This document shows, piece after piece, positions 6,003 through 50,339 of a DNA stretch of 64,000 bases (its first letter is position 1; every line of letters starts with the position of its first letter). Source of the DNA: Eubacteriales bacterium (GTDB taxonomy: Bacteria > Bacillota > Clostridia > Oscillospirales > CAG-272); assembly GCA_045632285.1 (NCBI GenBank), contig JAZQWJ010000037.1, positions 22,251 through 86,250 on the forward strand, read 5' to 3'. Position numbers and translations under genes: made by a program. The notes beneath the pieces were generated by a model, which was not told the origin of the DNA, did not search any database, and saw nothing but the letters and a program-made list of their open reading frames with translations.

Positions 6003-6007
6003 TTCCG

Positions 6008-7120: not shown

Positions 7121-7129
7121 AGGACTCCT

Positions 7130-8092: not shown

Positions 8093-8154
8093 AATCTACT
8101 CCAAATCTTTATACCGTTGCGCGGAAACCCGCGCAACGGTTGCTTTTGCCGCGA

Positions 8155-10722: not shown

Positions 10723-10762
10723 AATTTCCTCCAAATTTTATATCGCTCAGCGCAAAAACGCA

Positions 10763-14500: not shown

Positions 14501-17500
14501 GGTTGATAAACTTGACCTTTTCAATGCCGACGACCTCCATCAAGGAGCTACAGCCGTAGAAGGCACCGAAATCGATGCGCTCCAGCGTAGAAGGCAGCAC
14601 GACCTTAGTCAGTTTGGTCAGATTTGCAAAGGCATAAGAACCAATGGTCTTAACGCCCTCGGGGATCACGACGACCTCGATGGTATCGTCACCGATGAAC
14701 CACTGCTTGGTCGTGGTGGGATCATCCTCGGAGATCTCGTCGTTGGGGCCCTTGTCGATATATTCGAAATTAGAGAACGCAAACTGTCCGATATCCGTAA
14801 TGGCGAGAGATGCGGGGATCTCAACCGTGCCGCCAAGACCATAATAGTGCGTCAGCGACGGGCCGGTGGTAATATAGGGATCCTTGATCTCCACACTGAT
14901 AGACTGAGAATAATAGGTACTTTGGCCATCCAGCAGCACGTTGACCGAAACAGAGGCATAGCCCTCTGCCTTGGCAGTCACGACCCACTCGCCGTTGACC
15001 TTTTCAACGGTCAGCAGATTTTCGTTACCCGATTCGGCCACCACCTCGGTGGCATCGGGGAAATAGGCCTCGAGCTGATAGCGGAGCGTGACCTGCTCAG
15101 AGGGGTACATCGCAAGCGAATAACGGTTGCCGGTAAATTTCATTTCATCACCGATGCTGCCGATATCGCGGTCCTGCGTATTGAGGATGTAATAGGCCTT
15201 GTTGGTCAAATATCCGGTCAGGCGGAAGCTGTCGGCAACAGGCTTGTCGTATCTGACAAAGCCCTCGTCATTCTCGCCAAGCACCGTCAGCGCCATTGTG
15301 GTCTGTCTGTTGGAAACAGGGTCACGGGCAATGATCACCGATTGGCCGGGGGCCACGGCAACGATCTTATTGCCAACGATGCGCGCCACCTTGGTGTTGG
15401 TGGATACGTATTCCAGCAGCTCGGTCCACTGGGTGCCGGGATAAGCCATAGGCTTTAACTCATAGACTTGGTTGGGGCTGAGCTTGACCTCGTCCTCTTC
15501 AAAGTAGAAGGAGGCAAAATCATCCGGCATACGGATCTCATAAGTGGCCGTATTCAGCGCATAGTCATAGGTCGCGACCGTAAAGCTGTTGGTGTTGACC
15601 GCGCCACGCTTGATGTCGTCAACGTAATCGGTCAGTTCATAGATCACGTAGGAGGTGGAATTCTTCTCGGAATAAACAGGGGTCAGGTACTGGTCAAAGG
15701 TCTCCAGCATAAAGCCGTCGGCATCATAACGCACGTAGCCGACCTGCAAAGCCATTGCGTAATGGTTGTCATAAACCGCGATCTTGGCAAACAGACGCGT
15801 CTTTTTGGCGCTGCGGTCATACTCGGTATAAAACTCGCAGCCGGTCACAGCGGGGGCCTGGAAGTCGGTGACCACGGGGAAGGTAAAGGTGTTGTTGAGG
15901 TTGGTTCCCTCTCCGCCGTCCTTGTAATCCAGATAACCGCGGATCTCAACGGTATAGGAGCTGTTGTTCTTCAGATTTGCCTCGTATGCGTCAAAGTCGA
16001 TCTTGATGTCAGCGGGATAAATGGTTCCGCCGTCACCGTAGGACTTGCGTACATCGCTTTGCTCCTTTTCAAACACGACCTCGCCGGTGGCGTCATCGGT
16101 GATCGTGATCACGACCTTGGCCGCGTTACGCAACATACCGGCCCACACGTTGCTAAGCTCGTGAATGGCGCCCTCCTGATTGGAAAGCGAGATATACTTT
16201 CTGTCAGCAGCGATCTGCGTGGTGGAGGGATCCTGCACGAAGTAATAGGAACCCAAATAGCTGACGTAGTCACCCTGCACGGTACCGATGGGACGGGATG
16301 CATAAGCATCAGGCAGAGTCTTGTCAAGCAGGCTGATGGAATCATCCAGCTCATCCTTGTTGGTGGCAAAATAATCCAAGTCGAACAAGGGAGCCTTTGT
16401 CCAATCGCCATAGAAGGCAAGATACGGAACGCTCAGGTCCACAACGCTTGCATCAGCGGCATCCAGCGTAACAAATCCCTCGATATACATACCGTTTTCA
16501 AAGGAGCTGTCCAAATACTGCTTGTCGGCATCCGACAGCGTGATCTTGACCGTCACGTTGGCGGTCTGCCCTGCACCAACAGTAATGCTCATACCGTTGT
16601 GCGTTGCATTTTCAACAGAGGTGATCGACACGTTGGCGCCACCCAGCAGGCATCCAAGCTCGTCTACGGTGGTCTCGCCCTGATTGGTCTTGGTCTCGCT
16701 GACGCCCTCGGTCATAACATAGGCGCCCACGTTATAGGTCAAAGCAGCCGCGCCAAAGTTCTTTACAGCAAAGGACAGGGTGTAAACACCGTTTTTGGCA
16801 GGGTCATCACCAAGCTCAAGCTTGGTCTTATCCATTTCAACGCCGTTGCGGTAGGTCAGGATCACCGCATTGGTCTTTGCCACGTTGGTCAGATTGGCAA
16901 GACCTGCGCCCTGCTTGCGCACGGCATAGGGCAAGCCGTTGGTATTGAATACGATATCGGCGGTGGACATCATCAGCTGATTAACGAATGCCGCCACCTT
17001 GACCGAGTCGTTTGCGATCTCGGGGAAATTCTCCTTGACGTACTGACGGATCAGTGCGGTCACGCCGGCCACGTTGGGGCTTGCCATCGAGGTACCGGAC
17101 TGACGATCGTAACTTTGACCGGGCACGGCAGAATAGATCTCGCCGCCGTGTGCAGTGATCTCGGGCTTGATGCCCAGATCGGGAGTGGGGCCCCAAGAGG
17201 AGAAGTCGGACATAAAGGGGCCGGAGGTTTGAGAACGGCTGAGCTTCAGCGTTCCGGAGGCAGAGGCGGCCAGCAGCTCGCCGTCGTCCTGACCGATCGA
17301 GCATACGCCAAGCGTGGCGTCGCCCACGTTCATTTTGATATCGCCTGATACGTTATTATAAATGATAATACCGGCAGCACCCTTTTGTTGGGCAACGTTT
17401 GCCTTTTCCTCAAAGGTGGTAGAGCCGCGGCGCACCAGTGCGATCTTACCCGTCACGTCCAGGCCGCTGTAATCCGCCGAGCGTCCCGCACCCGGGATCG

Positions 17501-18929
17501 TAACGTATTCGATCTCCATCTCATCCACGCCGTCAGGCAGGATGTCGTCATAGAAGTTCTTTGCCTCTGCCACACGGTCGGTAGACTCGGTAAAGTAAAT
17601 GATAGTGCCGTTGTAGAGCAGATAAGGGGTCTTCTTGCCGCTGATAGAAGCAACCGACATGGCACCCTCATAGGTAGAGGGAGAGCCAACGGTCGCACTG
17701 TCGGGATTGGAGGTAAGACCAAGGTTACCGTTCTTTTCGGAGCCGTAGGTAGAGTTAAAACTGTTGGAGGCAGCAACGACCATGCTGATGCCGGTCGCAC
17801 GGATGCGGTCGTATACGCCGTTCACGGTCTCCTTATCGGTCTCGCGGCTAAAGCCACAGCTGGTACCGATCGACATATTGATCACGTCTACGCCAAGCAC
17901 CACGCAATCCTCAAGCGCGCTGAGGATCCAAGAGGTGCGCGCAGTGGATACAACGTCGGAAAAGATCTTCATGATCGCCAGCTGAGCGTTGGGGGCCACA
18001 CCGGTGATCACGTTATCCTTGCCCGCGATCACGCCTGCCACGTGCGTGCCGTGCTCGCTGGCGGAGGGGGTCATAGGATAAACGTCAGGATCGTAATCGG
18101 CATAGTCAAAGGCAAAGGGCACCTTTTCGTTCAGGTAAACGTCTGCAGCGGTCAGGCCGTTGTGCAGCTTGCTTGCCTTGGTATCGGTGATAAAGCCCTC
18201 GACGTCGGCCAAAGTCATACCCAGCTTGCTGCGGTCTGCCGTAAAGTTGCCGACCGAGAAGGCGGAATGATTATAGTCCAGACCCGTATCAAGCACGGCT
18301 ACCACGGTGCCGGTGCCGTCGTATCCAAAGGAGGAGCTGTTAAAGATACCGGTGCCGTAAACGTTGACCGTATTCTCGACCAGCTTGGTCTCGCTGGGGT
18401 TATACTCCTCGCCAACGATCGCCGTGGCACGGTCGCCCAGTGCCTCGCAAAGAGATTTAAAATCCCCTGCCTTGATCACGACCTCAAAGCCACCGAGGAT
18501 CGCCTTATAGTCTGCACCCAGCGTATAAGAAAAGCTCTTATCCGCAATGGCGCTGATCAGCTCTTCTTTTTCGGCGCGGATCCCCTCGGCCACACGGGCA
18601 GCATCGTCGGTCATCACGTACTCGGTAAAGGGCACGCTTTTGTTGCCGGCCTCGTATGCGTCAAGCAAAGAGGGGGCGCGATGCATCTGCACGATAACCG
18701 AGATCTCATCGGTCTCCTTAACCGTGTCAGGCAGCTTGTACATAACCGCGCTGTTCAAAAATTTGTCGCGATTGGTGTTGATATCCGCATTGCTTTGCCA
18801 AATATGAGAGGCGATCTGCTCGACCGTGTCCTCGATAAACAAAAGCGATGCGGAAAGGATCATAGCAAGCGCCAGTGCGATCGTGATGATGCTGCTGACT
18901 ATCGTGATCCTTTTTTTGCGATTTACCAT
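11502..18929 (-). CDS. Giant cell-envelope S8 (subtilisin-like) serine protease with PA insert, Ig-like domains, BspA-type leucine-rich repeats and a C-terminal TM anchor
   Basis: Start set to ATG 18929 (MVNRKKR), after AAAGGTGA; the GTG at 18941 is an alternative. N-terminal signal anchor. Catalytic triad motifs VLDTGLDYNH, HGTHVAG, SGTSMASPNVAG. PA-like GKIALVRRGSTTFEEKA. About 740 aa of FxxC/YAFxxC-type LRR_5 repeats (roughly nt 12250-14470). TM GATVAIIVLSILLGLFVLATAAAVVLFVLW followed by an acidic tail. No LPXTG. Confidence 0.9.
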   Translation of the reverse strand: MVNRKKRITIVSSIITIALALAMILSASLLFIEDTVEQIASHIWQSNADINTNRDKFLNSAVMYKLPDTVKETDEISVIVQMHRAPSLLDAYEAGNKSVPFTEYVMTDDAARVAEGIRAEKEELISAIADKSFSYTLGADYKAILGGFEVVIKAGDFKSLCEALGDRATAIVGEEYNPSETKLVENTVNVYGTGIFNSSSFGYDGTGTVVAVLDTGLDYNHSAFSVGNFTADRSKLGMTLADVEGFITDTKASKLHNGLTAADVYLNEKVPFAFDYADYDPDVYPMTPSASEHGTHVAGVIAGKDNVITGVAPNAQLAIMKIFSDVVSTARTSWILSALEDCVVLGVDVINMSIGTSCGFSRETDKETVNGVYDRIRATGISMVVAASNSFNSTYGSEKNGNLGLTSNPDSATVGSPSTYEGAMSVASISGKKTPYLLYNGTIIYFTESTDRVAEAKNFYDDILPDGVDEMEIEYVTIPGAGRSADYSGLDVTGKIALVRRGSTTFEEKANVAQQKGAAGIIIYNNVSGDIKMNVGDATLGVCSIGQDDGELLAASASGTLKLSRSQTSGPFMSDFSSWGPTPDLGIKPEITAHGGEIYSAVPGQSYDRQSGTSMASPNVAGVTALIRQYVKENFPEIANDSVKVAAFVNQLMMSTADIVFNTNGLPYAVRKQGAGLANLTNVAKTNAVILTYRNGVEMDKTKLELGDDPAKNGVYTLSFAVKNFGAAALTYNVGAYVMTEGVSETKTNQGETTVDELGCLLGGANVSITSVENATHNGMSITVGAGQTANVTVKITLSDADKQYLDSSFENGMYIEGFVTLDAADASVVDLSVPYLAFYGDWTKAPLFDLDYFATNKDELDDSISLLDKTLPDAYASRPIGTVQGDYVSYLGSYYFVQDPSTTQIAADRKYISLSNQEGAIHELSNVWAGMLRNAAKVVITITDDATGEVVFEKEQSDVRKSYGDGGTIYPADIKIDFDAYEANLKNNSSYTVEIRGYLDYKDGGEGTNLNNTFTFPVVTDFQAPAVTGCEFYTEYDRSAKKTRLFAKIAVYDNHYAMALQVGYVRYDADGFMLETFDQYLTPVYSEKNSTSYVIYELTDYVDDIKRGAVNTNSFTVATYDYALNTATYEIRMPDDFASFYFEEDEVKLSPNQVYELKPMAYPGTQWTELLEYVSTNTKVARIVGNKIVAVAPGQSVIIARDPVSNRQTTMALTVLGENDEGFVRYDKPVADSFRLTGYLTNKAYYILNTQDRDIGSIGDEMKFTGNRYSLAMYPSEQVTLRYQLEAYFPDATEVVAESGNENLLTVEKVNGEWVVTAKAEGYASVSVNVLLDGQSTYYSQSISVEIKDPYITTGPSLTHYYGLGGTVEIPASLAITDIGQFAFSNFEYIDKGPNDEISEDDPTTTKQWFIGDDTIEVVVIPEGVKTIGSYAFANLTKLTKVVLPSTLERIDFGAFYGCSSLMEVVGIEKVKFINRSAFEGCSLRGTVQLDKVVAIADRAFAGNRRLEGVVLGNDVQSVGMYAFSGNSDLKSVTIKAEIIKLGQYAFDQCKALTEIAINAAVIPTAAFNECTSLATIKLGKDVAVIGEYAFSNAKADTFIVDSANPYFAVGNGGKYLTNKAGNELLLVAPGVSGSFVGSADITSVANGAFSGNLRITSVSLPGVTRVGNYAFAYCESLQTVELGRLTLIGDYAFYRTDLVAAPSFAGLSSIGAYAFAYTDITEVMIPAGMKVGNGAFRECKAISSVVIGDNAVIGKDAFRLDRESNFTAIPGNYRNEQGKLVYYYIYTSSLQSLTVGNDVVLGNGAFMGAAVLESVTLGTGVVIGDSAFYNTPKLKSIDLSKVISIGAGAFSGDVLYEFADQNMTEPAIGQDREYLYRYYAPALTAIDLSAATYIGEDAFAYCRELASVKLGEGVSAIPARAFNLCVKLADIDLSGVKSVGDNAFCETVLTAVDLSSATSVDKYAFVYNKQLASVTFGADNVQLGEGAFAYCDQLSAIIGSNKLSDVGAYAFAYTALTAVDLSGASAIGDGAFMKETMTPFAVTLGKELKTLGENPFAMCRLQRFESTVTEEFNGEIFTGITSTFDISETVKVINGMLYRVVPNGLEMISYAGDATTVVIADGTVRITALAFAGSDVVQVVLPSTLISIGHKAFYGCDQLTMVSFASYEAPALEEEYDYSYWLSAENLPATGDYQYQDSYTGETLIYKGLGIVPYFMWNATDTPSVIYYGANFSDYIGHIKNNIVMVKPSNGLYYDSFIYGQYFTLAVEGAVAADKTTLEAIAAIKGLPDTVTLADKALVEAARAAYDRISSDGQRQLVKENGVYDKLVKAENRIRDLEYIQNEQTPAPEAPPAEEPVEEGISGATVAIIVLSILLGLFVLATAAAVVLFVLWKKGIIKVKPSQKADHADEQSEESAEGAAEAVEESVESEEETAKTEEAETKTAEVEEEAPADKETTENGESVEEKANEKDDH

Positions 18930-19215
18930 TGTGTTTTTCACCTTTCGTTATGGATTTTCCACGTGGATAAATATACGATTGTCGCATAGATACTATATTA
19001 TAGCATATTGTAGCATTTTTCGCAATAGGTTTTCGCAAACTGCACTGTAAAAGTTACAATTTTCACATTTATGCAAAAAACACGCGAAAAAGTAAATAAT
19101 TTTGCATAACCCATTGCATTTTTCGCGAATTTATGTTATTCTAAATGTGTATGCCCTTTATCACTTGAATTTGCATCCTTTCGATAGGCAAAAATCAAAA
19201 AACAGGAGAGTTCTT

Positions 19216-22200
19216 ATGAAAAAAATGCTGCGAATCCTTTCTCTGCTGCTGGCGCTTTTGATGGTGCTGACAGCCTTTGGCGCCATGATCGGCTGCGGAG
19301 AAGATCCCGTTCCGCCCCCCGCTCCCGGTCCCGAGGAGCCGGACGGCCCCACTCCCCCCGCACCCGGCCCCGACGGGAAGGCCACTTACACCGTCAGTGT
19401 AAAAAGCATTGGCGGCCGCGCCTTTGCCGATCTGCGCTTTTTCGTTTACGAGGGTGACGCCCTGAAGGGCTACGGCACCACCGATGCAAACGGCATCGGC
19501 ACGGTATCTTTGGTTCCCTCTACCGGCTACACCGTCGAGCTGGACGCCGCCAACCTGGAGGGCTATAACGTCCAAAGCAGATACAGCTTTGTGGGCGCCT
19601 CGGCCGCGATCGTGCTGACCTCCTCCATCATTACCGACAGCGATCTGACCGGCGTGACCTACAAGCTGGGTGATATCATCCGCGACTTCACCGTCACCAC
19701 CACCGACGGCACCCCCTTCACGCTTTCCGAGGCGTTTGAGGATGGCAAAAAGGCCGTGCTGATCAACTTCTGGTTCTCAACCTGCAGCCCCTGCATCAAC
19801 GAGTTCCCCTTTATCCAATCCGCCTACGAGCAATATTCCGATGACATCGAGATCATCGCACTGAACAATTATCCCACGGATAACGAGGCGACCATCTCTG
19901 CCTTTAAGGATCAAATGGGCCTTTCCTTCCCCGTAGCCAAGGATTATACCGGCATTGGCAACGCCTTTGGCATTAACGCATACCCCACCTCTATCATTGT
20001 TGACCGCTATGGCACCATCTGTCTGATCGAGGCAGGCAGCCTGCCCAGCGAACGCCCCCTTGTGGCCGCCTTTGAGCACTTTTCTGCCGACAACTACGTA
20101 CAAAAGCTCTTTACCAACGTGGCCGAGCTGACCCCCACTGAAAAGCCCAATGTTGAGATGCCCTCCTCCGAGGAGATCGGCACCGCCATCAACGGCAACG
20201 GCTTTGCCGCCAGCTACTACCCCGAAACAGAGTCGGCCGACGCCGAGTTCTCCTGGCCCTTCCTGATCGGCACCACGCCCGACGGCAAGAGCTGCATCTA
20301 TCCCGCCAACTCCTTTAAGCCCGAGTCCTTTGCAACGCTGCACGCCGACGTACAGCTGGAGGCCGGTCAGGCACTGGCCGTTGACTGGTTTGCCGACACC
20401 GAAAAGGCCAATGACGTCCTTTACATTCTTGTAAACGGACGCGACATCTACCGCATCTCCGGCACCAGCGAGGATTGGTCGACCTGCTACCCCTACGTTG
20501 CCACCGAGACCGCCACCTACAAGATCAGCTTTATTTATCTCAAGGATGGCGACACCGATGCCGAGACCGACCGCGTGCTGCTCTCTAACCTCCGCACCGT
20601 TTCTGTCAATGACGTCAATACCCCCACCTATATCCCCCGCGAGGCTGCGACCAAGCCCAATGCCAACGGTCTTGGCTTTCAAAATTACGTGACCGTTGTC
20701 TTTAATGAGACTGACGGCTATTGGCACGTCGGTGCAGCCAACGGCCCCATCCTGCTGGTCGATCTGATGGCCGGCACTCAGCTCAGCCCCGACACCTCGC
20801 TGAACGACCTTGGCTACGCCGGTAAGCTGGTAGACACCGACGGCGATATTTACGAAGAGCTTGTCACCTATGCCAATTATGCCATCAACGGCACGCTTTA
20901 CGGCTATTCGCCCGTAACTGCCGAGCTGCGCACCCTGCTTGAGCGCGCCGCCGAGATCGTAGGATTTGAGAGAGGCAATGCGAACCAGTGGCTGCAGGCC
21001 TGCTCTTACTACGATGCCTATGGCACCACCCAGCAGCTGGAGGACCCCGTTAAGGGCGTTGCCTTCTTTGCCGCCTTTGACACCGTTCTCGGTACCAAGG
21101 AAGATCCTTTTTATAACGCCGTAGAATACGACGGCCGCGTGATCATGCCTCGCGGTCTGAAATACAAGTTCGTTCCCGCTCGCTCCGGCGCTTACCTCAT
21201 CAAGTCTCAAAGCACCGACGAGGTCAACGGTTGGATCTTTGACGATGCGTATGAGATCATACACACCGCATCGGTCGTTGACCGCCCCTACGGCAACAAC
21301 GTGATCGACACCACGAATGTGTCTATGCTGGTCTACCTTGAGGCAAACGAGGTCTACTATATCGACATTGCCTATTACGACGTCTACGCCGCAGGCAGCT
21401 TTACCTTTACGGTGGAATATCTGGCAGAATCCTACCGCCACTTCCATCTGGCCTCCCCCGCTTATTTCACCTATATCGAAAGCACCTCCGGCTCGATCAA
21501 CGAGACCATTGCCGGCGGCATTGACGTGGTGCTGGGCGAGGATGGCTATTACCACGAGCTGAAGGCAGACGGATCGATGGGATCGATCCTTTATGCCGAC
21601 TTTATCCTGTCCACCGGTATGTTCTCCACCTCCATTGAGAGCATCATCGCAAACAACGGCTTTAACTTCTCTCTTAGCGAAAGCGACCAGATGGTTCTTT
21701 CCAAGCTGGAAGAACACAACGGCAACGTTGAGAGCTGCCGCGCATACTACAAGGAGCTGTGGGGCGACGCCTATGACGAATGGGCCGAGATCTACAAGCT
21801 GGAGGAGGTATTTGCAGGCAAGTATCACGGCGGCGTTCCGCTGACCGACGAGATCGTTGCCCTGTGCAAGCAGGTGCAGACCAAGCTTGCCGCCCTTTCC
21901 GGAAACGCCGAGGCGTGCCGCACGTATTTCACCACTCTTTGGACCGCCGACGGTGCAAAGATGACCTTTGCCCAGAGCTACGCGCTGGAGCAGGTGCTTG
22001 CAGACGAGTACGAAAACGGCGTGATCGATCTGACCGATGTGATCGAATCCTACAAGGCATACAAGCTCCCCACCTCTGCCGATGCCCCCGAGCTTGAGGG
22101 CTGCGTTGCCGTAGACGAGACCCTGGCACAGCTTTTGCAGGCGCTGATCGACAAGTACTCCTTTACAGGTGTTGACCACGCTTGGACCAAGCTTTGCTAC

Positions 22201-22233
22201 TACTACAAGGATCTGGGCCCCTCTAACCCCTAA
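19216..22233 (+). CDS. Surface lipoprotein: CarboxypepD_reg-like Ig domain + TlpA/ResA-type thioredoxin fold (CSPC) + large uncharacterised C-terminal region
   Basis: Start trimmed to ATG 19216 (MKKMLRILSLLLALLMVLTAFGAMIGCG lipobox), after AGGAGAG. Pro-rich linker. Redoxin motif AVLINFWFSTCSPCINEFP (TGC..TGC at 19783-19794). The C-terminal module is shared with the next gene. Confidence 0.8.
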   Translation: MKKMLRILSLLLALLMVLTAFGAMIGCGEDPVPPPAPGPEEPDGPTPPAPGPDGKATYTVSVKSIGGRAFADLRFFVYEGDALKGYGTTDANGIGTVSLVPSTGYTVELDAANLEGYNVQSRYSFVGASAAIVLTSSIITDSDLTGVTYKLGDIIRDFTVTTTDGTPFTLSEAFEDGKKAVLINFWFSTCSPCINEFPFIQSAYEQYSDDIEIIALNNYPTDNEATISAFKDQMGLSFPVAKDYTGIGNAFGINAYPTSIIVDRYGTICLIEAGSLPSERPLVAAFEHFSADNYVQKLFTNVAELTPTEKPNVEMPSSEEIGTAINGNGFAASYYPETESADAEFSWPFLIGTTPDGKSCIYPANSFKPESFATLHADVQLEAGQALAVDWFADTEKANDVLYILVNGRDIYRISGTSEDWSTCYPYVATETATYKISFIYLKDGDTDAETDRVLLSNLRTVSVNDVNTPTYIPREAATKPNANGLGFQNYVTVVFNETDGYWHVGAANGPILLVDLMAGTQLSPDTSLNDLGYAGKLVDTDGDIYEELVTYANYAINGTLYGYSPVTAELRTLLERAAEIVGFERGNANQWLQACSYYDAYGTTQQLEDPVKGVAFFAAFDTVLGTKEDPFYNAVEYDGRVIMPRGLKYKFVPARSGAYLIKSQSTDEVNGWIFDDAYEIIHTASVVDRPYGNNVIDTTNVSMLVYLEANEVYYIDIAYYDVYAAGSFTFTVEYLAESYRHFHLASPAYFTYIESTSGSINETIAGGIDVVLGEDGYYHELKADGSMGSILYADFILSTGMFSTSIESIIANNGFNFSLSESDQMVLSKLEEHNGNVESCRAYYKELWGDAYDEWAEIYKLEEVFAGKYHGGVPLTDEIVALCKQVQTKLAALSGNAEACRTYFTTLWTADGAKMTFAQSYALEQVLADEYENGVIDLTDVIESYKAYKLPTSADAPELEGCVAVDETLAQLLQALIDKYSFTGVDHAWTKLCYYYKDLGPSNP

Positions 22234-22270
22234 AATACACGTTTTTTCGCCCCGTTTGGGGACTAAATCC

Positions 22271-22306
22271 GCAAACGGACTGTCGCTTACACGACAGCCC
22301 GTTTGC
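22271..22306 (+). terminator. Hairpin between lipoprotein genes 1 and 2 (weak terminator or attenuator)
   Basis: GCAAACGGACTGTCG-CTTACA-CGACAGCCCGTTTGC with one A.C mismatch, followed only by TTTA. The GGAGG RBS of the next gene starts 8 nt later. Confidence 0.4.
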
Positions 22307-22327
22307 TTTACACGGAGGTTTTTTACA

Positions 22328-23605
22328 ATGAAGTACAATAAGCCCTTGGCCTTTTTCTCCCTGTTTATTTTATTGGCGCTTACCCTGTGCGCGGCGATCG
22401 GCTGTAGCACAAACGAGCCGCCCGCACCCGAGCCTCCTGCGCCCACTACCGCCACCTACAGTGTGACGCTTTTGGACGGCAACGACAATCAGATGAACGG
22501 TGTGATCGTCAAGGTCTTGAAGGGTGATGCAGAGCTGAACATGATCGCCTATAAGGGCGAGACCGTTACCTTTGAAGCCGATATCGACACCTACACACTG
22601 TCGCTGGATCTTTCTCAGCTGGCAGAGACCTATACCTATGACACCGCTCTTTGCACCCTGACGCCCGACTCCCCCTCCACCACGATCCGACTGCTACAAA
22701 AAAGCACGGTGAGCGAGTCTGTTTTTGTAGGCGACCCCATTGCCAAGGATTATAACGCACAGCTGATCGGCGTTGGCGCCTATGCCCTGGACCTGACGCC
22801 GGGCGACTACACGTTCCTTATTTTCAAGCCCGATGCACCCGCCGTATATTCCGTGACCTATGAGTGTGCCGGTGCAGAGATCGGCTACCACGGTAGCACG
22901 TTTTTTGTACAAGGACGCGATATTGCTGACGGCTCTGACGACGTGCAGCACATTGAAAACGGTCTGTCGATCAAGTTTTATGCCAGCAACATCGGCAGTG
23001 ATCTTGTCTTTTCCATCAGGTCCGAAGCAGCTGCCACTGCCATCCTCCGCATTCAAGTTACCGGCGCACCTCCCATTAGATTAGAGGATCGCCCCTGGAC
23101 CCCCTTTACCGAGGATGCCGCCAAGGTGCAGCAGCATTTGAACGTGCCCAAGGTCGGTACGTGGAACAAGGTCGACCTCACCGATCTCACGCTGAATGCC
23201 GTGCTGAACGAGACCGATGGGTTTTATCATTTGGGAACGGCCGACGGCCCGATCCTGTTTATTGACTTGACCTCGGATACCCCTTACATCAACAGCGTAC
23301 AGACCATTTGCGCCAATCAACGTATGGGCATTTACGTTTATGACGACGCCGAAAACGTGATCGAAAAGCGCAGCTACAACGAGCTGTTCCACCAATACGG
23401 CATGCCAACAGACACCTCTGCCCCCGAGGGAGGAGCCATCCGTGTGCCTCTGACGGAAAAGCTGGCAGCAGCCATCCGCGAATTTGGCGAAAAGAGTGAA
23501 TGGTGGAAGGCCGGCTCTGAGAAAAACCTCTTTACCCGCGAGATCGCCGACGCCGTCTATAACCAAAGCTTTGCGTGGCTCCTCTTCTGCGGATATTACG
23601 CCTGA
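22328..23605 (+). CDS. Surface lipoprotein, paralogous to the C-terminal region of the preceding gene
   Basis: Start trimmed to ATG 22328 (MKYNKPLAFFSLFILLALTLCAAIGCS lipobox), after GGAGG. Ig-like N-domain (YSVTLLDGNDNQMNGVIVKV). Shared module LNETDGFYHLGTADGPILFIDL, versus FNETDGYWHVGAANGPILLVDL in the upstream protein. Confidence 0.75.
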   Translation: MKYNKPLAFFSLFILLALTLCAAIGCSTNEPPAPEPPAPTTATYSVTLLDGNDNQMNGVIVKVLKGDAELNMIAYKGETVTFEADIDTYTLSLDLSQLAETYTYDTALCTLTPDSPSTTIRLLQKSTVSESVFVGDPIAKDYNAQLIGVGAYALDLTPGDYTFLIFKPDAPAVYSVTYECAGAEIGYHGSTFFVQGRDIADGSDDVQHIENGLSIKFYASNIGSDLVFSIRSEAAATAILRIQVTGAPPIRLEDRPWTPFTEDAAKVQQHLNVPKVGTWNKVDLTDLTLNAVLNETDGFYHLGTADGPILFIDLTSDTPYINSVQTICANQRMGIYVYDDAENVIEKRSYNELFHQYGMPTDTSAPEGGAIRVPLTEKLAAAIREFGEKSEWWKAGSEKNLFTREIADAVYNQSFAWLLFCGYYA

Positions 23606-23657
23606 CCCTGCAAAAGCCCCCTAACGGTATGCGTTTTTCTGTTTTTAAACGAAAGCA

Positions 23658-23686
23658 TTGCCTTTTTTCTTCAAATGTGCTATAAT
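23658..23686 (+). promoter_or_regulatory. Sigma-70/SigA-type promoter for the third lipoprotein gene
   Basis: TTGCCT, 17 nt, then TATAAT with an upstream TGc extended -10. Confidence 0.5.
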
Positions 23687-23727
23687 AAAAGCGCTAACCC
23701 AAATAAACTTTAAACGGAGCAGATCTT

Positions 23728-24996
23728 ATGAAAAGAAATACCCTTCACAAGCTTTTGATCGCCCTTGCCCTGCTGCTGAGCATTGCTCTGCTTGCTTGCG
23801 CTTGCGGCAGCACCCCCGATCCCGTGCCCGCCCCCGATCCCGAGACCCCCGAGGATCCTACCCCCAAGCTGACCTATACCGTGACCGTGACCGATGAGGC
23901 CGGTGCTCCTGTTTCGGATGCCACCGTACGCATCTTCTCCGGCACTGCCGAAAAGGGCACCGCCACCACCAACGCCTCCGGCGTGGCCACCCTTGAGGTC
24001 GAGGAAGGTCTTTACACCTCTGTTAAGGTTTCCAAGACCGGCTACGTTGAGCAAGAGGCCAATATTCCTATGGACGTCAAGAGCGTATCCGTACGCCTTG
24101 CTACAGACAACAATGCCACCTACACCATTACGGTAGAGGACTTTAACGGCAACCGCCTTGCCGGCGTAGCCGTTAAGATGTGCATCGGCGAGCTTTGCCG
24201 CATCCCCGGCGTGACCAACGCTAACGGCGTTTCTGTGCAGACCTGGGAAAAGGGCGATTATAAGGTTGAGGTCATTCTTTCCGGCTACTATACCGAGGAT
24301 CAGTATCACTACTTTGAAAACGGCAGCACGGAAATGACCATTACGATGATCCCCAACCCCGGTTGCGAGGCAAACCCCTTTAGATTTGAAAATTTGGAAA
24401 ACAACAGTATTACCGTCCCTGCCGGCAAGACCGTGTATTACACCGGCCGCGTCATGGGCACGACAATGACGCTGCTGGGCACCGATGTGACCGTTCGTCA
24501 CGACGGTCAGGATCACACCGCCGTGGGTGGCGTTGTCACCATTGAAAGCTGCAAGGGCGATATCTACGCTCCCTCTCTCTTTGCGATCACCAACAACGGC
24601 ACCGCAGAGGCCACCTACACGGTCAGCTTTGCACACCCCGTCGGCTCTATGGAAAACCCCGCCCCCCTGACCATTGGCAGCAACAGCGCCAACACCGGCA
24701 GCAATGGCTATTTTTACACCTACACCGCCACCGAGGCAGGCACGTTGACCATTACGATCGACACAGGTTGCGCTGATTGGAGCTATACGATCAACGTATA
24801 TCCCGTCGGGCACGACGATGACTATGAGGACGAGATCGAGCCCGCTTACGGCAACACCTACACCTCTGCCGATGACACCCCCGTGGCAACCCAATCCGTC
24901 AGTGTTCCGGCCAATGCCGTGGTCGAGATCACCATCGCTGCCGCGGCAGAATCCGCCACCGTTCCCTTTACCGCAAGCTTTGAGCCCAATACTTAA
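23728..24996 (+). CDS. Surface lipoprotein with CarboxypepD_reg-like and pre-peptidase-C-terminal-like beta domains
   Basis: MKRNTLHKLLIALALLLSIALLACACGS lipobox and a Pro-rich linker. TYTVTVTDEAGAPVSDATVRIF..NASGVATLEV pattern, with a second copy YTITVEDFNGNRLAGVAVKM..NANGVSV. Confidence 0.7.
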   Translation: MKRNTLHKLLIALALLLSIALLACACGSTPDPVPAPDPETPEDPTPKLTYTVTVTDEAGAPVSDATVRIFSGTAEKGTATTNASGVATLEVEEGLYTSVKVSKTGYVEQEANIPMDVKSVSVRLATDNNATYTITVEDFNGNRLAGVAVKMCIGELCRIPGVTNANGVSVQTWEKGDYKVEVILSGYYTEDQYHYFENGSTEMTITMIPNPGCEANPFRFENLENNSITVPAGKTVYYTGRVMGTTMTLLGTDVTVRHDGQDHTAVGGVVTIESCKGDIYAPSLFAITNNGTAEATYTVSFAHPVGSMENPAPLTIGSNSANTGSNGYFYTYTATEAGTLTITIDTGCADWSYTINVYPVGHDDDYEDEIEPAYGNTYTSADDTPVATQSVSVPANAVVEITIAAAAESATVPFTASFEPNT

Positions 24997-25010
24997 TGCC
25001 TCTGATTCCC

Positions 25011-25053
25011 GTTGCGGCACCTGCCATATGGTAGGTGCCGCAACGTTTTTTTG
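25011..25053 (+). terminator. Intrinsic terminator
   Basis: CGTTGCGGCACCT-loop-AGGTGCCGCAACG followed by TTTTTTT. Confidence 0.8.
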
Positions 25054-25081: not shown

Positions 25082-25110
25082 TTGATTTTGCGGAGATTTT
25101 GCGATATAAT
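25082..25110 (+). promoter_or_regulatory. SigA-type promoter of the CXXC-membrane-protein / NapH-Trx unit
   Basis: TTGATT, 17 nt, then TATAAT. Confidence 0.55.
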
Positions 25111-25169: not shown

Positions 25170-25961
25170 ATGTCACAGACAACCATAAATCGCATCAAGC
25201 TGATCTACGGGATCCTGCTCTCGGCCCTGCTTGTCGTCAGCGGCATATTGCTGATGATCGCCTGTGTCAGCATCTATCGCATTGGCGAAGAACCCTTCAC
25301 CCCCCAAAATATTGCCAATGCATTCAGCAAGGTCTGCATTCCCGTTTACATCACACTAGGATCCGTGGCGGTTGGCCTGATCTTTTGGATCATCTACCCC
25401 AACGAGCAAAAAAAGCCCAAGCCATCGGTTGGCGAGCGGGTGCTACTGGAGCGCCTTGCGCAAAAGCTGAACATTGACGAAAACTGCCCTACCGAGCCCC
25501 AAATGATCATCAAAAAAGAGAAAAAACTGCGCCTTACGCTCCGCATTATCACCTTGGCACTATGCGTGCTGGTTTCGCTGCCGGGCTTGATCTACGCGCT
25601 GAACCTTGGCCACTATCACGGTGCCGAGACCTGTAACAGCGATATCATCGCCGCCTGCCTGTGGCTGCTGCCCTGTGTATTTGTGGCAACCGGCCTTTGT
25701 GTGGCGCTTGTCTATTTAGAGCATGCAAGCCTGCAGCGTGAATTAGAGGCCGTCAAGCGTATTGCAAAGGTCTGCGGTATGCGCCGTACCCAAGAAGAGC
25801 CTGCACCTATCGCCAAAAACGGCCGCGTCATCTTGATCGTTCGCATCGCGCTGGCGGTTGCCGCCGTCGGGCTGATTATTGCCGGTATTGCCAACGGCGG
25901 TATGGCAGACGTGCTGGCAAAGGCCATCAACATCTGCACCGAGTGCATCGGTCTTGGCTAA
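25170..25961 (+). CDS. Polytopic membrane protein ending in a CXXC motif (CTECIGLG)
   Basis: 263 aa with about 5 hydrophobic segments. Last residues are ...GGMADVLAKAINICTECIGLG (TGC..TGC at 25935-25946). The terminal ICxECIGxG signature recalls, from memory, small 'CD1871A family CXXC' proteins found beside 4Fe-4S membrane proteins; this is unverified. The stop overlaps the AAGGAGG RBS of the next gene. Confidence 0.6.
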   Translation: MSQTTINRIKLIYGILLSALLVVSGILLMIACVSIYRIGEEPFTPQNIANAFSKVCIPVYITLGSVAVGLIFWIIYPNEQKKPKPSVGERVLLERLAQKLNIDENCPTEPQMIIKKEKKLRLTLRIITLALCVLVSLPGLIYALNLGHYHGAETCNSDIIAACLWLLPCVFVATGLCVALVYLEHASLQRELEAVKRIAKVCGMRRTQEEPAPIAKNGRVILIVRIALAVAAVGLIIAGIANGGMADVLAKAINICTECIGLG

Positions 25962-25975
25962 GGAGGTGCCGTAAC

Positions 25976-27556
25976 ATGAAAAAATTCATCGCATGGATCA
26001 AAAAGCACCTTCCCTCTAAGCGCAAACTGATCCAGGTCTATGCTGCCCTGCTTTTTAACGCCAATCTCAAGGGCTTTGGTAACGGAAAGATCTATACGGG
26101 TCCCCTAAAAAACATCTGCACCCCCGGTCTCAACTGCTATTCCTGCCCCGGTGCATCAGGTGCCTGCCCCTTGGGCGCGCTGCAAAATTCCTTGGCTTCT
26201 GCCAATAAAAGCGCCCCCTATTATATGTTTGGCATCATCATATTGTACGGTTTTCTGTTTGGCCGTTGGATCTGCGGTTTTCTCTGTCCCTTTGGTCTGA
26301 TCCAGGAGCTACTGCATAAGATCCCCACCCCCAAGCTGAAGAAAAATCGCGTTACCCGTGTGCTTTCTTATTTAAAGTACGTCATACTGGCCTTTTTCGT
26401 GATTCTGGTTCCTCTCGCCTATATGCTGCGCAAATTCCCTCTGCCCGGATTTTGCAAATACATCTGCCCCGCCGGCACGCTGGAGGGCGCTATGGGTCTG
26501 CTATCCAACAAGGTCAACGAAAGCTCGCTGCGTATGCTTGGCCCGCTGTTTACGTGGAAATTCCTGTTAATGGTCTCTATTTTGGTGGCCAGCGTCTTTA
26601 TTTTCCGCTTTTTCTGCCGTTTCCTCTGCCCCCTGGGCGCGCTTTACGGCCTGTTCAACAAGATCTCGCTTGTAGGCGTTAAGGTGGAGCGTGAGGGATG
26701 TACCGACTGCGGCATCTGTGTGGATCATTGCAAAATGGATATCAAGCACGTGGGCGACCAAGAGTGCATCAGCTGCGGTGAATGCATCGGCGTTTGCCCC
26801 ACCAAGGCCATCAGCTGGAAGGGCTCTAAGATCTTCCTCGCCCCCAACGCCATCGACGTGCCTGTGGACGTGGATCAGGAGGCTAAGGCAGAGATCATTG
26901 CATACAACGAGGAGCGCAGCAAGCGAATCGCCAAGCGCAATAAGATCATCAAGATCACCGTGGGTGTGCTGATGATCGCCGTACTGGCCGGTGCGCTGAT
27001 CTACTACAACTTTATCGACGGGCGCGACACGCAAGCACCCGAGATCCCCGAGCCGCCCGCAATTGAGGCGCCGGAGGGCGATACGCCCCCCGAGATCCCC
27101 GTTGGCCCCAACGTCGGCAATCTCTGTCCCGAGATCGCGCTGGACGTGCTGAACAAGGAAAACGACTTTGCCCTCTCCGCCAACCGCGGCAAGGTGACGG
27201 TGCTAAACTTCTGGTACACCACCTGCGGTCCCTGCGTAGAAGAGCTGCCCCACTTTAACAACGCGGCAAACACCTACGGCGACAAGCTGTCATTGATCGC
27301 CCTGCACATTCAGTTCCCGGGCATGACTGCGGCAGACGTCCCGGTTTGGGTATCCGAAAATCACCCCGAATGGAGCAGCGGCAATATGCTGATTGCTTGG
27401 GATACCGACGGTACCTATCAAAAGTATTTCGGCATTCAAGCCTGCCCCGTAACCATCGTGATCGATGGCAACGGCATCATTTCCGACAAGTTTGTCGGAA
27501 AGGTCAGTGAAGAAAAGCTGATCGAGGCTGTTGAAAAGGCGTTGGGCGAGCAATAA
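25976..27556 (+). CDS. NapH/MauN-like membrane 4Fe-4S protein fused to a C-terminal TlpA/thioredoxin-fold domain (CGPC)
   Basis: Start trimmed to ATG 25976 (MKKFIAWIKK). CYSCPGASGACPLG. Cys/Pro TM motifs ICGFLCPFGLIQE and FCRFLCPLGALYG. Two ferredoxin motifs, CTDCGICVDHC and CISCGECIGVCP. Then TM IIKITVGVLMIAVLAGALIYYNFI, a Pro-rich linker, and VTVLNFWYTTCGPCVEELP (27224-27235). Confidence 0.8.
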   Translation: MKKFIAWIKKHLPSKRKLIQVYAALLFNANLKGFGNGKIYTGPLKNICTPGLNCYSCPGASGACPLGALQNSLASANKSAPYYMFGIIILYGFLFGRWICGFLCPFGLIQELLHKIPTPKLKKNRVTRVLSYLKYVILAFFVILVPLAYMLRKFPLPGFCKYICPAGTLEGAMGLLSNKVNESSLRMLGPLFTWKFLLMVSILVASVFIFRFFCRFLCPLGALYGLFNKISLVGVKVEREGCTDCGICVDHCKMDIKHVGDQECISCGECIGVCPTKAISWKGSKIFLAPNAIDVPVDVDQEAKAEIIAYNEERSKRIAKRNKIIKITVGVLMIAVLAGALIYYNFIDGRDTQAPEIPEPPAIEAPEGDTPPEIPVGPNVGNLCPEIALDVLNKENDFALSANRGKVTVLNFWYTTCGPCVEELPHFNNAANTYGDKLSLIALHIQFPGMTAADVPVWVSENHPEWSSGNMLIAWDTDGTYQKYFGIQACPVTIVIDGNGIISDKFVGKVSEEKLIEAVEKALGEQ

Positions 27557-27949: not shown

Positions 27950-27978
27950 TTGACATTCCAAGTACATCGTGGTAAATT
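27950..27978 (+). promoter_or_regulatory. SigA-type promoter for the ABC exporter / DUF1854 pair
   Basis: TTGACA, 17 nt, then TAAATT with a TGg extended -10. It lies inside the 5' end of the computed ORF 27969.., which argues against that GTG start. Confidence 0.55.
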
Positions 27979-28037
27979 GTAGGCACAACCGGAAAGGAGA
28001 GTCGTTTCCCTTTCATGGGAACGGCGCCAAATGGCAA

Positions 28038-30311: not shown

Positions 30312-30321
30312 GGGGGTTGCT

Positions 30322-30810
30322 ATGGGACGTATATACATTGACCAATACACCGGCCGCATCAAGCGCAGTGACATTTATTTGGTGACCTTGACGCTAAAAG
30401 ACGGTACCGTTATTGAGAATTTGGAACCAAGGCGCCTTTTTCCCGTAACCAACGCCGATATGTTTATCACGCTTTTGGATCATGATGAAAAGGAAGTCGC
30501 CTTTGTCCGCGACCTTGCAGAACTGGACGAAGGCTCTGCCAACGAGCTGCGCCAATGCTTTAAGGAATACTACCGCATCCCACACATTTTCAAGCTGCTT
30601 GAAAGCGACGAAAAGTTTGGATCTTTGACGTGGAAGGTAGAGACCGACCGCGGCACCGTATCCTTCCGTATCCGCAACCGCCACAGCGACATCAAATGTA
30701 TGAACGGAAAGCGCGTGCTGATCCGTGACACCAACGACAACCGCTATGAGATCCCGGACTATACCGCACTGGATCCGCACAGTCGCAGGCTGCTGTTTTC
30801 TTATCTGTAA
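30322..30810 (+). CDS. DUF1854-like protein (ABC-exporter-associated, function unknown)
   Basis: Start trimmed to ATG 30322 (MGRIYIDQYTG), after GGGGG. 162 aa. The sequence resembles the DUF1854 family as I remember it, which is typically adjacent to ABC ATPase/permease genes. Confidence 0.6.
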   Translation: MGRIYIDQYTGRIKRSDIYLVTLTLKDGTVIENLEPRRLFPVTNADMFITLLDHDEKEVAFVRDLAELDEGSANELRQCFKEYYRIPHIFKLLESDEKFGSLTWKVETDRGTVSFRIRNRHSDIKCMNGKRVLIRDTNDNRYEIPDYTALDPHSRRLLFSYL

Positions 30811-44472: not shown

Positions 44473-44543
44473 TTCGTTCTCCCCTTTTCTGTTGCTTCTT
44501 CTATTATACACCGTCAGGATCGATTTAAAACGAAAATCGCGTT

Positions 44544-45983: not shown

Positions 45984-46057
45984 ACCGTCCTCCATAAAAT
46001 ATTGCTCGTACAAAGCGGCGGATAAAACAAGTTTATCCGCCGCGTCAAAAAATTCAA

Positions 46058-47746: not shown

Positions 47747-47748
47747 GA

Positions 47749-50122: not shown

Positions 50123-50242
50123 TACTTTATCTCCTTTGCTTTTGATAACGATAATTTTGGCAAAATCCCCTGCAGCACTGCTGCGATGGAATTTTTGCAT
50201 TAAAGTGTATAAACACACACTTCCCTATTTTAATTACCTATT

Positions 50243-50271
50243 ATTATATCACAAAAAGAAAATATTTTCAA
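50243..50271 (-). promoter_or_regulatory. SigA-type promoter of hydCBA
   Basis: Minus strand reads TTGAAA, 17 nt, then TATAAT with a TGa extended -10. The leader is about 120 nt. Confidence 0.5.
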
Positions 50272-50298
50272 TAATAAATTCGCAAAAAACTAAAAAAA

Positions 50299-50339
50299 GG
50301 CATAGAAAAAGAGGGTATGACACCCTCTTTTTCTATGCC
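50299..50339 (-). terminator. Intrinsic terminator after nfnB
   Basis: GGCATAGAAAAAGAGGGT-ATGAC-ACCCTCTTTTTCTATGCC. On the minus strand it is followed by TTTTTTT. Confidence 0.85.

Follow-up and report, generated by a model that had tools for sequence, protein, structure and literature searches.

What does an exported thioredoxin do when it forms part of a 1005-residue protein, large regions of which match no named family, encoded beside a giant protease? Exported thioredoxins are known as small single-purpose reductases that are fed by CcdA or DsbD. The question is raised by three consecutive genes, here called P1, P2 and P3, at positions 19216-24996 of a 64-kb window of one genome (Eubacteriales bacterium, GenBank assembly GCA_045632285.1), the window being the whole stretch of DNA that was analysed. 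P1 departs from the known exported thioredoxins by its permanent fusion to ~700 residues of binding-type domains, which include two copies of a module without matches in Pfam, NCBIfam or the PDB, and in at least 182 uncultured gut species its gene order links it to a protease and peptide-uptake system. The P1-P3 system is real, conserved and widespread. As to its role, we see about an even chance that P1-P3 constitute the surface thiol-reducing machine of an extracellular proteolysis and peptide-uptake locus in strictly anaerobic gut Oscillospirales. Two membrane proteins encoded downstream, P4 and P5 (the latter a NapH-like protein fused to a thioredoxin, NapH::Trx), are considered below as a possible electron supply.

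19216-22233, plus strand: P1, a 1005-residue predicted lipoprotein (open reading frame with ribosome-binding site; AlphaFold mean predicted local distance difference test score, pLDDT, 87.6)
22328-23605, plus strand: P2, a 425-residue predicted lipoprotein (open reading frame with ribosome-binding site; AlphaFold pLDDT 90.1)
23728-24996, plus strand: P3, a 422-residue predicted lipoprotein (open reading frame with ribosome-binding site; Pfam CarboxypepD_reg)

Purine-rich sites 5' of the ATG codons of all three genes provide plausible ribosome-binding sites. Identical products (1005, 425 and 422 residues) were found in public records, elsewhere named only "hypothetical protein", and a cluster look-up of P1 and P5 returned the names "hypothetical protein" and "ferredoxin" only. 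The N-termini of P1, P2 and P3 consist of a basic n-region, a hydrophobic stretch and a lipobox cysteine (...GAMIGC, ...CAAIGC and ...ALLAC, respectively), followed in the translations by a Pro-rich linker. The G+LPP-type Gram-positive lipobox pattern is matched by all three, as well as by 99 of the 131 full-length representatives of the P1 family. By this pattern, P1, P2 and P3 are predicted lipoproteins that would be extracytoplasmic and membrane-anchored, and the lipoboxes and Pro-rich linkers reported for all three by a previous sequence-only reading of this DNA were recovered here.

That reading had described three paralogous lipoproteins, each with an immunoglobulin (Ig)-like domain of the CarboxypepD_reg kind. 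A related Ig-like domain was found in each of them. P3 passed the Pfam threshold for CarboxypepD_reg (35.3 bits vs 32.3) and P1 and P2 fell under Pfam detection. BLASTP aligns P1 with P3 over the linker and Ig domain (E 4e-13), a custom hidden Markov model (HMM) of the P3-type Ig domain also matches those of P1 (24.4 bits) and P2 (19.8 bits) and the first Ig domain of P3, and the AlphaFold models place seven-stranded sandwiches at the Ig positions of P1 (residues 56-136) and P2 (41-94). The term paralogous holds for the shared domain types; it does not extend to the full-length proteins, because domain types are all that is shared according to BLASTP and hhalign, P2/P3 and P1/P3 having only the N-terminal architecture in common.

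The domain order of P1 is signal peptide with lipobox, Pro-rich linker, Ig-like domain, ResA/TlpA-type thioredoxin, jelly-roll, module A, beta-sandwich and module B:

19216-19377, plus strand: signal peptide, lipobox (MIGC, Cys27) and Pro-rich linker (lipobox pattern)
19378-19626, plus strand: Ig-like (CarboxypepD_reg-like) beta-sandwich, cysteine-free (BLASTP vs P3, Ig HMM, model strands 56-136)
19663-20085, plus strand: thioredoxin domain with WFSTCSPC (CSPC at nt 19783-19794) and a YPT cis-Pro loop (Pfam Redoxin, Foldseek)
20203-20610, plus strand: jelly-roll directly after the thioredoxin (model strands 332-463; Foldseek match to DipZ)
20623-21030, plus strand: module A, ..NETDGYWHVG..GPILLVDL ... 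WLQACSYY (hhalign vs P2 module)
21109-21456, plus strand: beta-sandwich (model strands 634-745; sub-threshold GLEYA)
21463-22230, plus strand: module B, ..GEDGYYHE..ILYADF ... WTKLCYYY (hhalign vs module A)

In the AlphaFold model, residues 1-24 form the signal helix and ~23-44 a disordered linker (pLDDT <50), with the lipobox Cys27 conserved in at least 90% of orthologues; the thioredoxin domain comprises residues 150-290 (pLDDT ~90) and the jelly-roll ~330-465. Residues 151-277 match Pfam Redoxin (PF08534, 55.8 bits, cutoff 26.6) and AhpC-TSA (PF00578, 55.6 bits, cutoff 26). Neither P2 nor P3 contains a Redoxin domain by Pfam or NCBIfam, in agreement with the earlier assignment of a redoxin fold with WFSTCSPC to P1 only. 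A Foldseek search of the PDB with full-length P1 is dominated by matches to the thioredoxin domain. The DipZ ectodomain comes first, followed by ResA, then 4nmu, TlpA-like proteins of Geobacter and Chlorobium, StoA and pneumococcal Etrx, the matches after DipZ having template modelling (TM) scores on the target from about 0.65 up to 0.90. The top match, to the DipZ C-terminal domains (5cyy/2hyx, E 8e-12, ~360 aligned columns), reflects a tandem of thioredoxin and jelly-roll as in the DipZ ectodomain. On ResA (1st9/1su9/2h1b) and 4nmu the thioredoxin domain superposes with a target TM of 0.85-0.90 and a root mean square deviation of 1.6-2.2 Å over ~140 residues, and the PDB sequences nearest to the P1 profile are the reductases ResA, StoA and the pneumococcal Etrx lipoproteins. 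Its fold, motif and score place the P1 thioredoxin in the TlpA/ResA/DsbE class. Residues C190, C193, Y256, P257 and T258 are invariant in 61 closer sequences.

Two more specific assignments were rejected. ResA orthology, and with it a role in cytochrome c maturation, was discarded since the best NCBIfam model (NF002854) scores 80.6 bits against a cutoff of 170 and the context is unlike; no ResB/CcsA-type neighbours were found in the window or in the three annotated related loci (L001-L003). A peroxiredoxin, as the AhpC-TSA match might imply, was rejected because the site is a WxxCxxC at the thioredoxin position.

C-terminal to the jelly-roll, P1 shares with P2 the alpha/beta module that the sequence-only reading had recognised as common to both.

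23180-23602, plus strand: P2 module, single copy (residues 285-425 in the model)

BLASTP aligns P1 492-521 with P2 289-318 (53% identity over 30 residues, E 6e-8) and identifies a weaker second copy of the P2 module at P1 769-830. In hhalign comparisons of family profiles, the P2 module matches module A with 98% probability (E 2e-13) over 104 columns to the W..C.YY end, and module A matches module B with 80% probability (E 1.4e-5). On the basis of the BLASTP and hhalign matches, P1 therefore holds two copies of the module and P2 one. According to the AlphaFold model, module A (P1 470-605) has five or six short strands, helices and a final strand bearing C596-YY, and module B (P1 750-1005) follows the same plan with the addition of a long helical insert. 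In the window P1, this insert includes a helical duplication of ~60 residues (residues 836-872 and 896-935, nt 21721-22020; NVESCRAYYKELWGD...KYHGG vs NAEACRTYFTTLWTA...EYENG) that is absent from 19 aligned orthologues. The cysteines C269, C596, C963 and C994 are invariant in the 61 closer sequences. P2 is modelled as an Ig-like domain (strands 41-94), a sandwich at ~125-250 resembling pre-peptidase C-terminal (PPC) domains, and the module (285-425).

As the earlier reading had it, the large C-terminal regions of P1-P3 match no named family in Pfam, NCBIfam or the PDB sequences, and the same holds for the alpha/beta module itself. Pfam and NCBIfam scans with the whole proteins and, at E-values up to 10, with eight excised sub-domains left sub-threshold GLEYA/PA14 in P1 630-750 as the one named match in these regions. 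A PDB sequence-profile search returned thioredoxins only for the P1 family and noise for the P2 family, and Foldseek with the P2 model, which presents the module without a thioredoxin, left the module unmatched. The remainder of P1 and P2 resembles generic binding folds only (pilins, CUB, PPC and phage receptor-binding proteins), and P1 against viral structures yielded low-TM, generic multi-beta-sandwich tail or receptor-binding proteins only. The PPC resemblance previously proposed for P1 and P3 found no support in the sequences: PF04151 is unmatched at E up to 10 by P1 630-750, by P3 205-310 and 305-422, and by P2 125-262. The sole PPC-like fold match in Foldseek is instead the middle domain of P2, to collagenase PPC (5sv5, TM 0.55, fold level only), the remaining P2 matches being tandem-sandwich proteins of low TM; hhalign detects no significant profile similarity between this domain and the jelly-roll or beta-sandwich of P1. 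The latter (P1 630-750) scores 21.6 bits with GLEYA (E 2.8e-4), under the 26.2 cutoff, and E 0.11 with PA14, and may be termed PPC/GLEYA/PA14-like by pattern only.

A search with the C-terminal 705 residues of P1 retrieved 1318 homologues at 90% clustering, nearly all of ~940 residues and with a Redoxin domain, bearing names such as "redoxin domain-containing" or "TlpA family protein disulfide reductase" and originating from Clostridia and Ruminococcaceae metagenome-assembled genomes (MAGs). Against representatives of 50%-identity clusters, P1 gives 570 matches at E<=1e-3 and 249 at E<=1e-30, which nearly always start near residue 300-350. The family is present in 182 species-representative genomes, all of them gut MAGs (goat, sheep, deer, buffalo and other faecal sources) named Oscillospiraceae, Eubacteriales, Faecousia or Ca. 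Fimenecus. These 570 clusters and 182 genomes bear out the suggestion of a lineage-specific, conserved surface module. The thioredoxin is fused to the C-terminal region in 130 of 131 full-length representatives, and the CxxC is kept in 134 of 135 thioredoxin domains (130 from full-length and 5 from shorter 50%-identity representatives). The fusion is under selection. The dipeptide within the CxxC varies greatly (CGPC 21, CTYC 18, CSWC 17, CSAC 13, CTWC 13, CSPC 10, and others), and the redox potential is therefore unreadable from the motif. The 108 homologues of P2 all lack Pfam domains and fall into two size classes. Approximately two thirds are 650-740 residues long (e.g. P0157, P0160, P0204) and carry six to eight N-terminal repeats, H...(A/P)(S/T)C(T/S)..G......C..C, an extracytoplasmic Cys3His pattern that is zinc-ribbon-like; the window P2 belongs to the short class without repeats.

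These data bear on the proposal that P1-P3 are adhesins or scaffolds, with a thioredoxin that acts locally or in self-protection (for instance against oxidative stress, as in pneumococcal Etrx-MsrAB) and with the protease and NapH::Trx merely belonging to a shared surface-protein island. It would explain why everything but the thioredoxin returns generic binding folds only, and it draws on the large surface proteins nearby (e.g. the GDPD-collagen protein at 30962-34213) and on the Etrx lipoproteins among the structural neighbours. However, the thioredoxin Cys pair is strictly conserved, and neither the window nor the three annotated P1 neighbourhoods (L001-L003) yielded an Msr gene. The gene order P1-P2-Ig(CxxxxC), together with the divergent protease, is kept down to ~39% identity across the 182 species, which argues for more than an island effect. 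We consider a mainly adhesive role very unlikely.

The genes upstream of P1 point in a different direction, and had escaped the sequence-only reading, as had the P3 C-x4-C pair and the P4 CXXC tail described below.

3685-10734, minus strand: Opp-type peptide ABC importer, an 859-residue SBP_bac_5 protein, then OppB, OppC, OppD and OppF (Pfam)
11502-18941, minus strand: giant protease of 2479 residues with Peptidase_S8, PA, fn3_5, five LRR_5 blocks and a C-terminal transmembrane anchor (Pfam)
18942-19215, no strand: divergent intergenic region of 274 bp between protease and P1, with promoter-like sites on the minus (19025-18997) and plus (19032-19060) strands

In the window, the minus-strand operon reads protease, small open reading frame, SBP_bac_5, OppB, OppC, OppD and OppF. 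The small frame (10763-11644) is conserved and has no Pfam match, with counterparts of 371-454 residues at 1195-2310 of L001 and 1023-2387 of L003; as listed it overlaps the 3' end of the protease, and its true start is therefore probably further downstream. We determined neighbourhoods by tblastn, with the proteins of the window as queries and 83 loci of other genomes as targets, at up to 10 kb per side; the related loci derive from the best 80 of the 182 genomes and are phylogenetically non-independent, and the main sample, to which tblastn thresholds were applied, is made up of the 47 loci in which P1 is flanked by 8 kb or more on each side. The S8/LRR_5 protease is found near P1 in 41 of these 47, and is immediately upstream and divergent in 34; P2 is near P1 in 42. 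The protease, with its Opp operon, is the most constant neighbour of P1 and is more tightly linked than NapH::Trx. An SBP_bac_5 gene also adjoins the protease in L001 and L003. P1 occurs with no protease within 10 kb in 6 of the 47 loci, and also in L002, L058 and L070; such loci contain an 857-residue SBP_bac_5 (L058) or a PepF peptidase (L078), and otherwise mixed neighbours. In 41 protease orthologues, 13 Cys columns are at least 80% conserved. Invariant C346 and C362 lie in the catalytic domain, flanking the ..VINMSIG.. substrate-binding strand, and there is one Cys per LRR_5 repeat.

With so constant a neighbour, P1-P3 could be dedicated folding or maintenance factors for the S8/LRR_5 protease, the thioredoxin reducing or isomerising its cysteines and the binding domains docking on it. 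The adjacent, divergent position, the 13 conserved Cys columns including the catalytic-domain pair, and the membrane anchoring of all partners, which would hold them close together, are consistent with this reading, and there is a parallel in the lactococcal lipoprotein gene prtM, which diverges from the proteinase gene prtP. Homology of P1-P3 to PrtM/PrsA was considered and rejected: the rotamase (parvulin-type peptidyl-prolyl isomerase) domain is absent in Pfam and NCBIfam, and its absence also speaks against a folding role of this kind. So do the family members without a protease within 10 kb. Two or three thioredoxin fusions per locus and ~1800 residues of varied binding domains appear excessive for a single client, and a lone Cys is typical of LRR_5 repeats in general and need not be redox-sensitive. 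Maintenance or maturation of the protease is a close rival that we judge rather unlikely; oxidative-folding and mainly adhesive roles are less likely.

A second pair of cysteines, outside the thioredoxin, is provided by P3, whose domain order is an Ig domain, a second Ig domain with C-x4-C and two uncharacterised beta-rich segments.

24109-24342, plus strand: second Ig domain of P3, with Cys152-IGEL-Cys157 at nt 24181-24198 (orthologue motif, HMM)

In most genomes the third gene encodes a lipoprotein of just 141-170 residues that aligns with the second Ig domain of the window P3, and this domain is the conserved core of the operon's third gene. The motif G.P..G..VQxC-x4-C..P..T(D/N)A.G retains the Cys pair in 45 of 46 orthologous small lipoproteins (C-x4-C in 38, C-x5-C in 5, C-x3-C in 2, absent in 1). 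In the 62 loci with at least 5 kb downstream of P1, where an HMM match and the Cys pair were both required, the Ig domain with its pair is found in 54. Nine of 13 P3-type domains match CarboxypepD_reg and 12 of 13 match Big_1; solved structural relatives in the PDB have no cysteines in the C-x4-C loop. In several operons (L060, L066, L075, L078, L079 and L081) the place of the third gene is taken by a second Ig and thioredoxin fusion of up to ~1000 residues (CNPC, CQPC, CAPC or CGPC), and L081 contains a third fusion as well; most of the second fusions have a C-terminus like the C-terminal half of the window P3.

If the P1 thioredoxin is to reduce anything, it needs a source of electrons, and the genes that follow P3 offer a candidate.

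25010-25045, plus strand: intrinsic terminator of P1-P2-P3, 16-bp stem with 11 GC pairs, then a T run
25082-25110, plus strand: promoter-like site after the terminator
25170-25961, plus strand: P4, a 263-residue membrane protein with five predicted helices and a C-terminal CXXC tail (nt 25848-25958)
25976-27556, plus strand: P5, a NapH-like polyferredoxin membrane protein fused to a TlpA-type thioredoxin (WYTTCGPC, nt 27113-27514)

Residues 227-263 of P4 match CD1871A (NCBIfam NF040920, a 38-residue model, 36.7 bits vs cutoff 32), with the tail GG..DV..KA..ICTECIGLG; the motif here ends a 263-residue membrane protein and is not a free 38-residue peptide. Three P4 cysteines are kept in 39 of 40 sequences, namely C256 and C259 of the tail and C32, located where the first membrane helix ends. 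P5 comprises an N-terminal four-Cys motif, three CX3CP motifs, two [4Fe-4S] motifs, an extra transmembrane helix and the thioredoxin, with Pfam matches to Fer4_5 (PF12801, 72.9 bits vs 22, in three stretches) and Redoxin (55.2 bits). Its 18 N-terminal cysteines and the thioredoxin CxxC are conserved in 38 of 38 sequences. We call P5 NapH-like rather than NapH because the NapH/MauN subfamily cutoff is not reached (78.6 vs 213), and its start is probably the ATG at 25976 and not the GTG at 25943, since conservation begins near Met12. The topology was predicted by the positive-inside rule. The P5 thioredoxin would lie outside and the ferredoxin part in the cytoplasm, given a Lys/Arg-rich segment before the last helix and an acidic Pro-rich linker after it, and the P4 CXXC tail would likewise be outside, given two Lys/Arg-rich loops. 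Neither P4 nor P5 matches DsbD/CcdA in Pfam or NCBIfam. In L001 an extra TlpA-like thioredoxin of 201 residues is encoded right after P5.

P4 is always immediately upstream of P5, the pair being inseparable in every locus examined and frequently in inverted orientation to P1. The NapH-like part of P5 lies within 10 kb of P1 in 30 of 47 loci, and P4 in 29. The sequence-only reading had suggested P1-P3 as a client or partner of NapH::Trx; the co-occurrence stands, whereas the separate transcription unit, the frequent inversion and the existence of P5 without P1 loosen the tie, and "client or partner" is therefore a matter of inference. Nothing that would have overturned the earlier reading by its own terms was observed: the module is unannotated, NapH::Trx co-occurs in other genomes and the Cys pair is conserved among orthologues. 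NapH-like proteins are documented as modules that conduct electrons across the membrane to redox domains outside the cytosol (PMC8238504), and pneumococcal surface thioredoxin lipoproteins are fed from the membrane (PMC3914529).

Elsewhere in the window, the minus strand at 42775-59516 carries energy genes typical of a ferredoxin-based anaerobe: a CoA-disulfide-reductase-like protein (Pyr_redox_2 with rhodanese), two [FeFe]-hydrogenase-type proteins with a NuoF-like subunit, an Nfn-like pair, RnfC/RnfD with an FMN_bind protein, and ApbE. The Rnf, ApbE, bifurcating [FeFe]-hydrogenase and Nfn-like genes indicate such an anaerobe, in which low-potential electrons would be available for outward transfer.

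The same components can be read in the opposite direction, with the P1 and P5 thioredoxins as oxidants like DsbA/BdbD or VKOR-Trx and P5 carrying electrons into the membrane or Fe-S pool. The VKOR-Trx layout, a membrane redox protein fused to an external thioredoxin, is indeed that of P5. Many conserved Cys pairs occur in the exported partners, and disulfides would be introduced into secreted proteins such as the protease, the module Cys pairs and the Cys-rich repeats of the long P2 class; the very variable CxxC dipeptide can also be counted in favour. Nevertheless, the closest relatives in sequence and structure are the reductases ResA, StoA, Etrx, CcmG/DsbE and TlpA. P5 is of NapH type with cytoplasmic low-potential [4Fe-4S] motifs, and the window points to a ferredoxin-based strict anaerobe, so that electrons from thiols at ~-0.2 V would have to run uphill, and no quinone-linked oxidase context was seen. 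Oxidative folding is, in our judgement, quite improbable.

We return to the reading in which P1-P3 are a surface thiol-reducing machine. Low-potential electrons of the cytoplasm, from ferredoxin, would enter the Fe-S clusters of P5, traverse the membrane via the P5 CX3CP and P4 cysteine motifs, and reduce the external thioredoxin of P5. Thiol-disulfide exchange would then pass them to the P1 thioredoxin, possibly with the P3 Ig C-x4-C as a shuttle between the two, analogous to the alpha domain (Ig fold) of DsbD. P1, probably in complex with P2 through the shared module and held on its binding domains, would reduce disulfides at the cell surface. The likeliest targets would be disulfide-stabilised extracellular substrates or protease inhibitors, which could then be cleaved by the S8 protease and imported as peptides by Opp; as a second possible role, the conserved protease cysteines could be maintained in the reduced state. 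It is known that Kunitz and Bowman-Birk inhibitors are inactivated by thioredoxin, and that disulfide proteins become protease-sensitive under its action. We favour substrates or inhibitors as the client because the thioredoxin is mounted on large, variable binding domains, because some genomes have additional copies of it in different fusions, and because the peptide theme persists where the protease is not adjacent. The second Ig and thioredoxin fusions and the Cys3His long P2 variants suggest several targets. The complete route, a DsbD-independent export of reducing power from ferredoxin through P5/P4 and the P3 shuttle to P1/P2 that unlocks disulfide proteins and inhibitors for the protease, is unlikely to be correct in its entirety.

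A number of points weigh against the reductive scheme. The neighbourhood fits substrate reduction and protease maintenance or maturation alike, some TlpA-fold proteins are oxidases, and what is said here on the function of P1-P5 is inferred from computation. The terminator after P3 and the promoter-like site beyond it give P4-P5 a transcription unit of their own in the window, 17 of 47 loci have no NapH::Trx within 10 kb of P1, and P4-P5 occur with no P1 nearby in L084; P5 may thus be a general source of reductant or unrelated to P1. DsbD/CcdA (PF02683) and ResBC were not found among the scanned proteins of the 64-kb window, and a CcdA/DsbD may be encoded elsewhere in the genome. The C-x4-C of P3 could be a redox shuttle, a metal site or a structural staple. 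Similarly, the module Cys pairs C553/C596 and C963/C994 could be structural disulfides or metal sites and not part of a relay; C553 is at least 90% conserved among P1 orthologues and is Ala in the window P1, so that the C553/C596 pair is unlikely to be essential. The C-terminal ~700 residues of P1 may also have an enzymatic function.

Comparison with known systems identifies precedents for the individual parts. ResA, StoA, TlpA and CcmG (DsbE) are, like P1, membrane-anchored, outward-facing thioredoxin folds with WxxCxxC and a cis-Pro loop. They are, however, single-domain proteins of ~140-190 residues fed by CcdA/DsbD, with apocytochrome c, spore cortex proteins or CuA/Sco as clients, whereas P1 has 1005 residues, ~700 of them extra, a NapH-like::Trx protein beside it instead of CcdA, and no cytochrome-maturation neighbours. 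In M. tuberculosis DipZ (Rv2874), the ectodomain likewise has a TlpA-like thioredoxin followed by a carbohydrate-binding-like jelly-roll, but the DipZ polypeptide also contains a CcdA/DsbD-type membrane domain and ends after the jelly-roll, in contrast to the lipoprotein P1 with two modules and a beta-sandwich more; the overall TM of 0.35 on the target indicates that the relative domain placement differs. S. pneumoniae Etrx1 and Etrx2 (2yp6, 4hqz, 4hqs) are Gram-positive surface TlpA-type thioredoxin lipoproteins, as P1 is predicted to be, in a route from CcdA through Etrx to MsrAB2 with the membrane donor encoded nearby (PMC3914529). The Etrx proteins are small and single-domain with a methionine sulfoxide reductase as client, unlike P1, a large fusion beside a protease/Opp system and a NapH-like Fe-S protein.

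The cascade logic of DsbD, from membrane beta to Trx-like gamma to Ig-fold alpha with a Cys pair and on to periplasmic Trx-like clients, would have its counterparts in the P5+P4 conduit, the fused thioredoxin, the P3 Ig C-x4-C and the terminal P1 thioredoxin. The parts are non-homologous, the window having a Fer4_5 membrane part and CarboxypepD_reg/Big_1 Ig domains on separate proteins. NapH-like flavinylated systems (PceC, NosR-type) resemble P5 in the PF12801 Fe-S module that links cytosolic or membrane electron pools to an extracytosolic redox domain (PMC8238504); in those systems this is an external ApbE-flavinylated FMN-binding domain, as opposed to the TlpA-type thioredoxin and P4 CXXC tail here. 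Finally, lactococcal PrtP/PrtM with Opp is alike in its S8 proteinase with PA and fn3_5, its oligopeptide importer and its divergent lipoprotein gene. PrtM is a PrsA-type isomerase, P1-P3 instead carry thiol-redox modules, and the window protease is distinguished by its transmembrane anchor and its long LRR_5 region. The closest precedents are therefore the DipZ ectodomain in architecture, Etrx and the DsbD cascade in function, and prtP/prtM with opp in genomic arrangement. None of them has the C-terminal modules, the P2 family, an Ig C-x4-C lipoprotein or a NapH-like::Trx partner, and in the searchable literature we found no paper describing any of these four, no mention of CD1871A, and no connection drawn between cell-envelope proteinases and thioredoxin lipoproteins in Oscillospiraceae.

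If the reductive scheme is true, "reductive extracellular proteolysis" would be a nutritional strategy of uncultured gut Oscillospirales, and would explain how abundant uncultured Clostridia of the herbivore and human gut attack disulfide-rich dietary or host proteins. NapH-like::Trx could represent an unrecognised route that moves electrons to external thiols in ferredoxin-based anaerobes. Should the model be wrong, the analysis still defines three families without annotation, whose members at present go by "hypothetical" or "redoxin domain-containing": the C-terminal region of P1, the family of P2 and the lipoprotein with the Ig C-x4-C.

Two further observations concern the genes beyond P5. 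At 27969-30810, a 780-residue ABC exporter with an N-terminal extension of ~190 residues containing CPKCGRTLSSPGAPCIGC (zinc-ribbon-like) overlaps a DUF1854 protein by a few bases, a pair that is not beside P5 in related loci. The gene at 30962-34213 encodes a 1083-residue exported protein with a GDPD phosphodiesterase domain, a C-terminal collagen-like G-x-y repeat and a membrane anchor.

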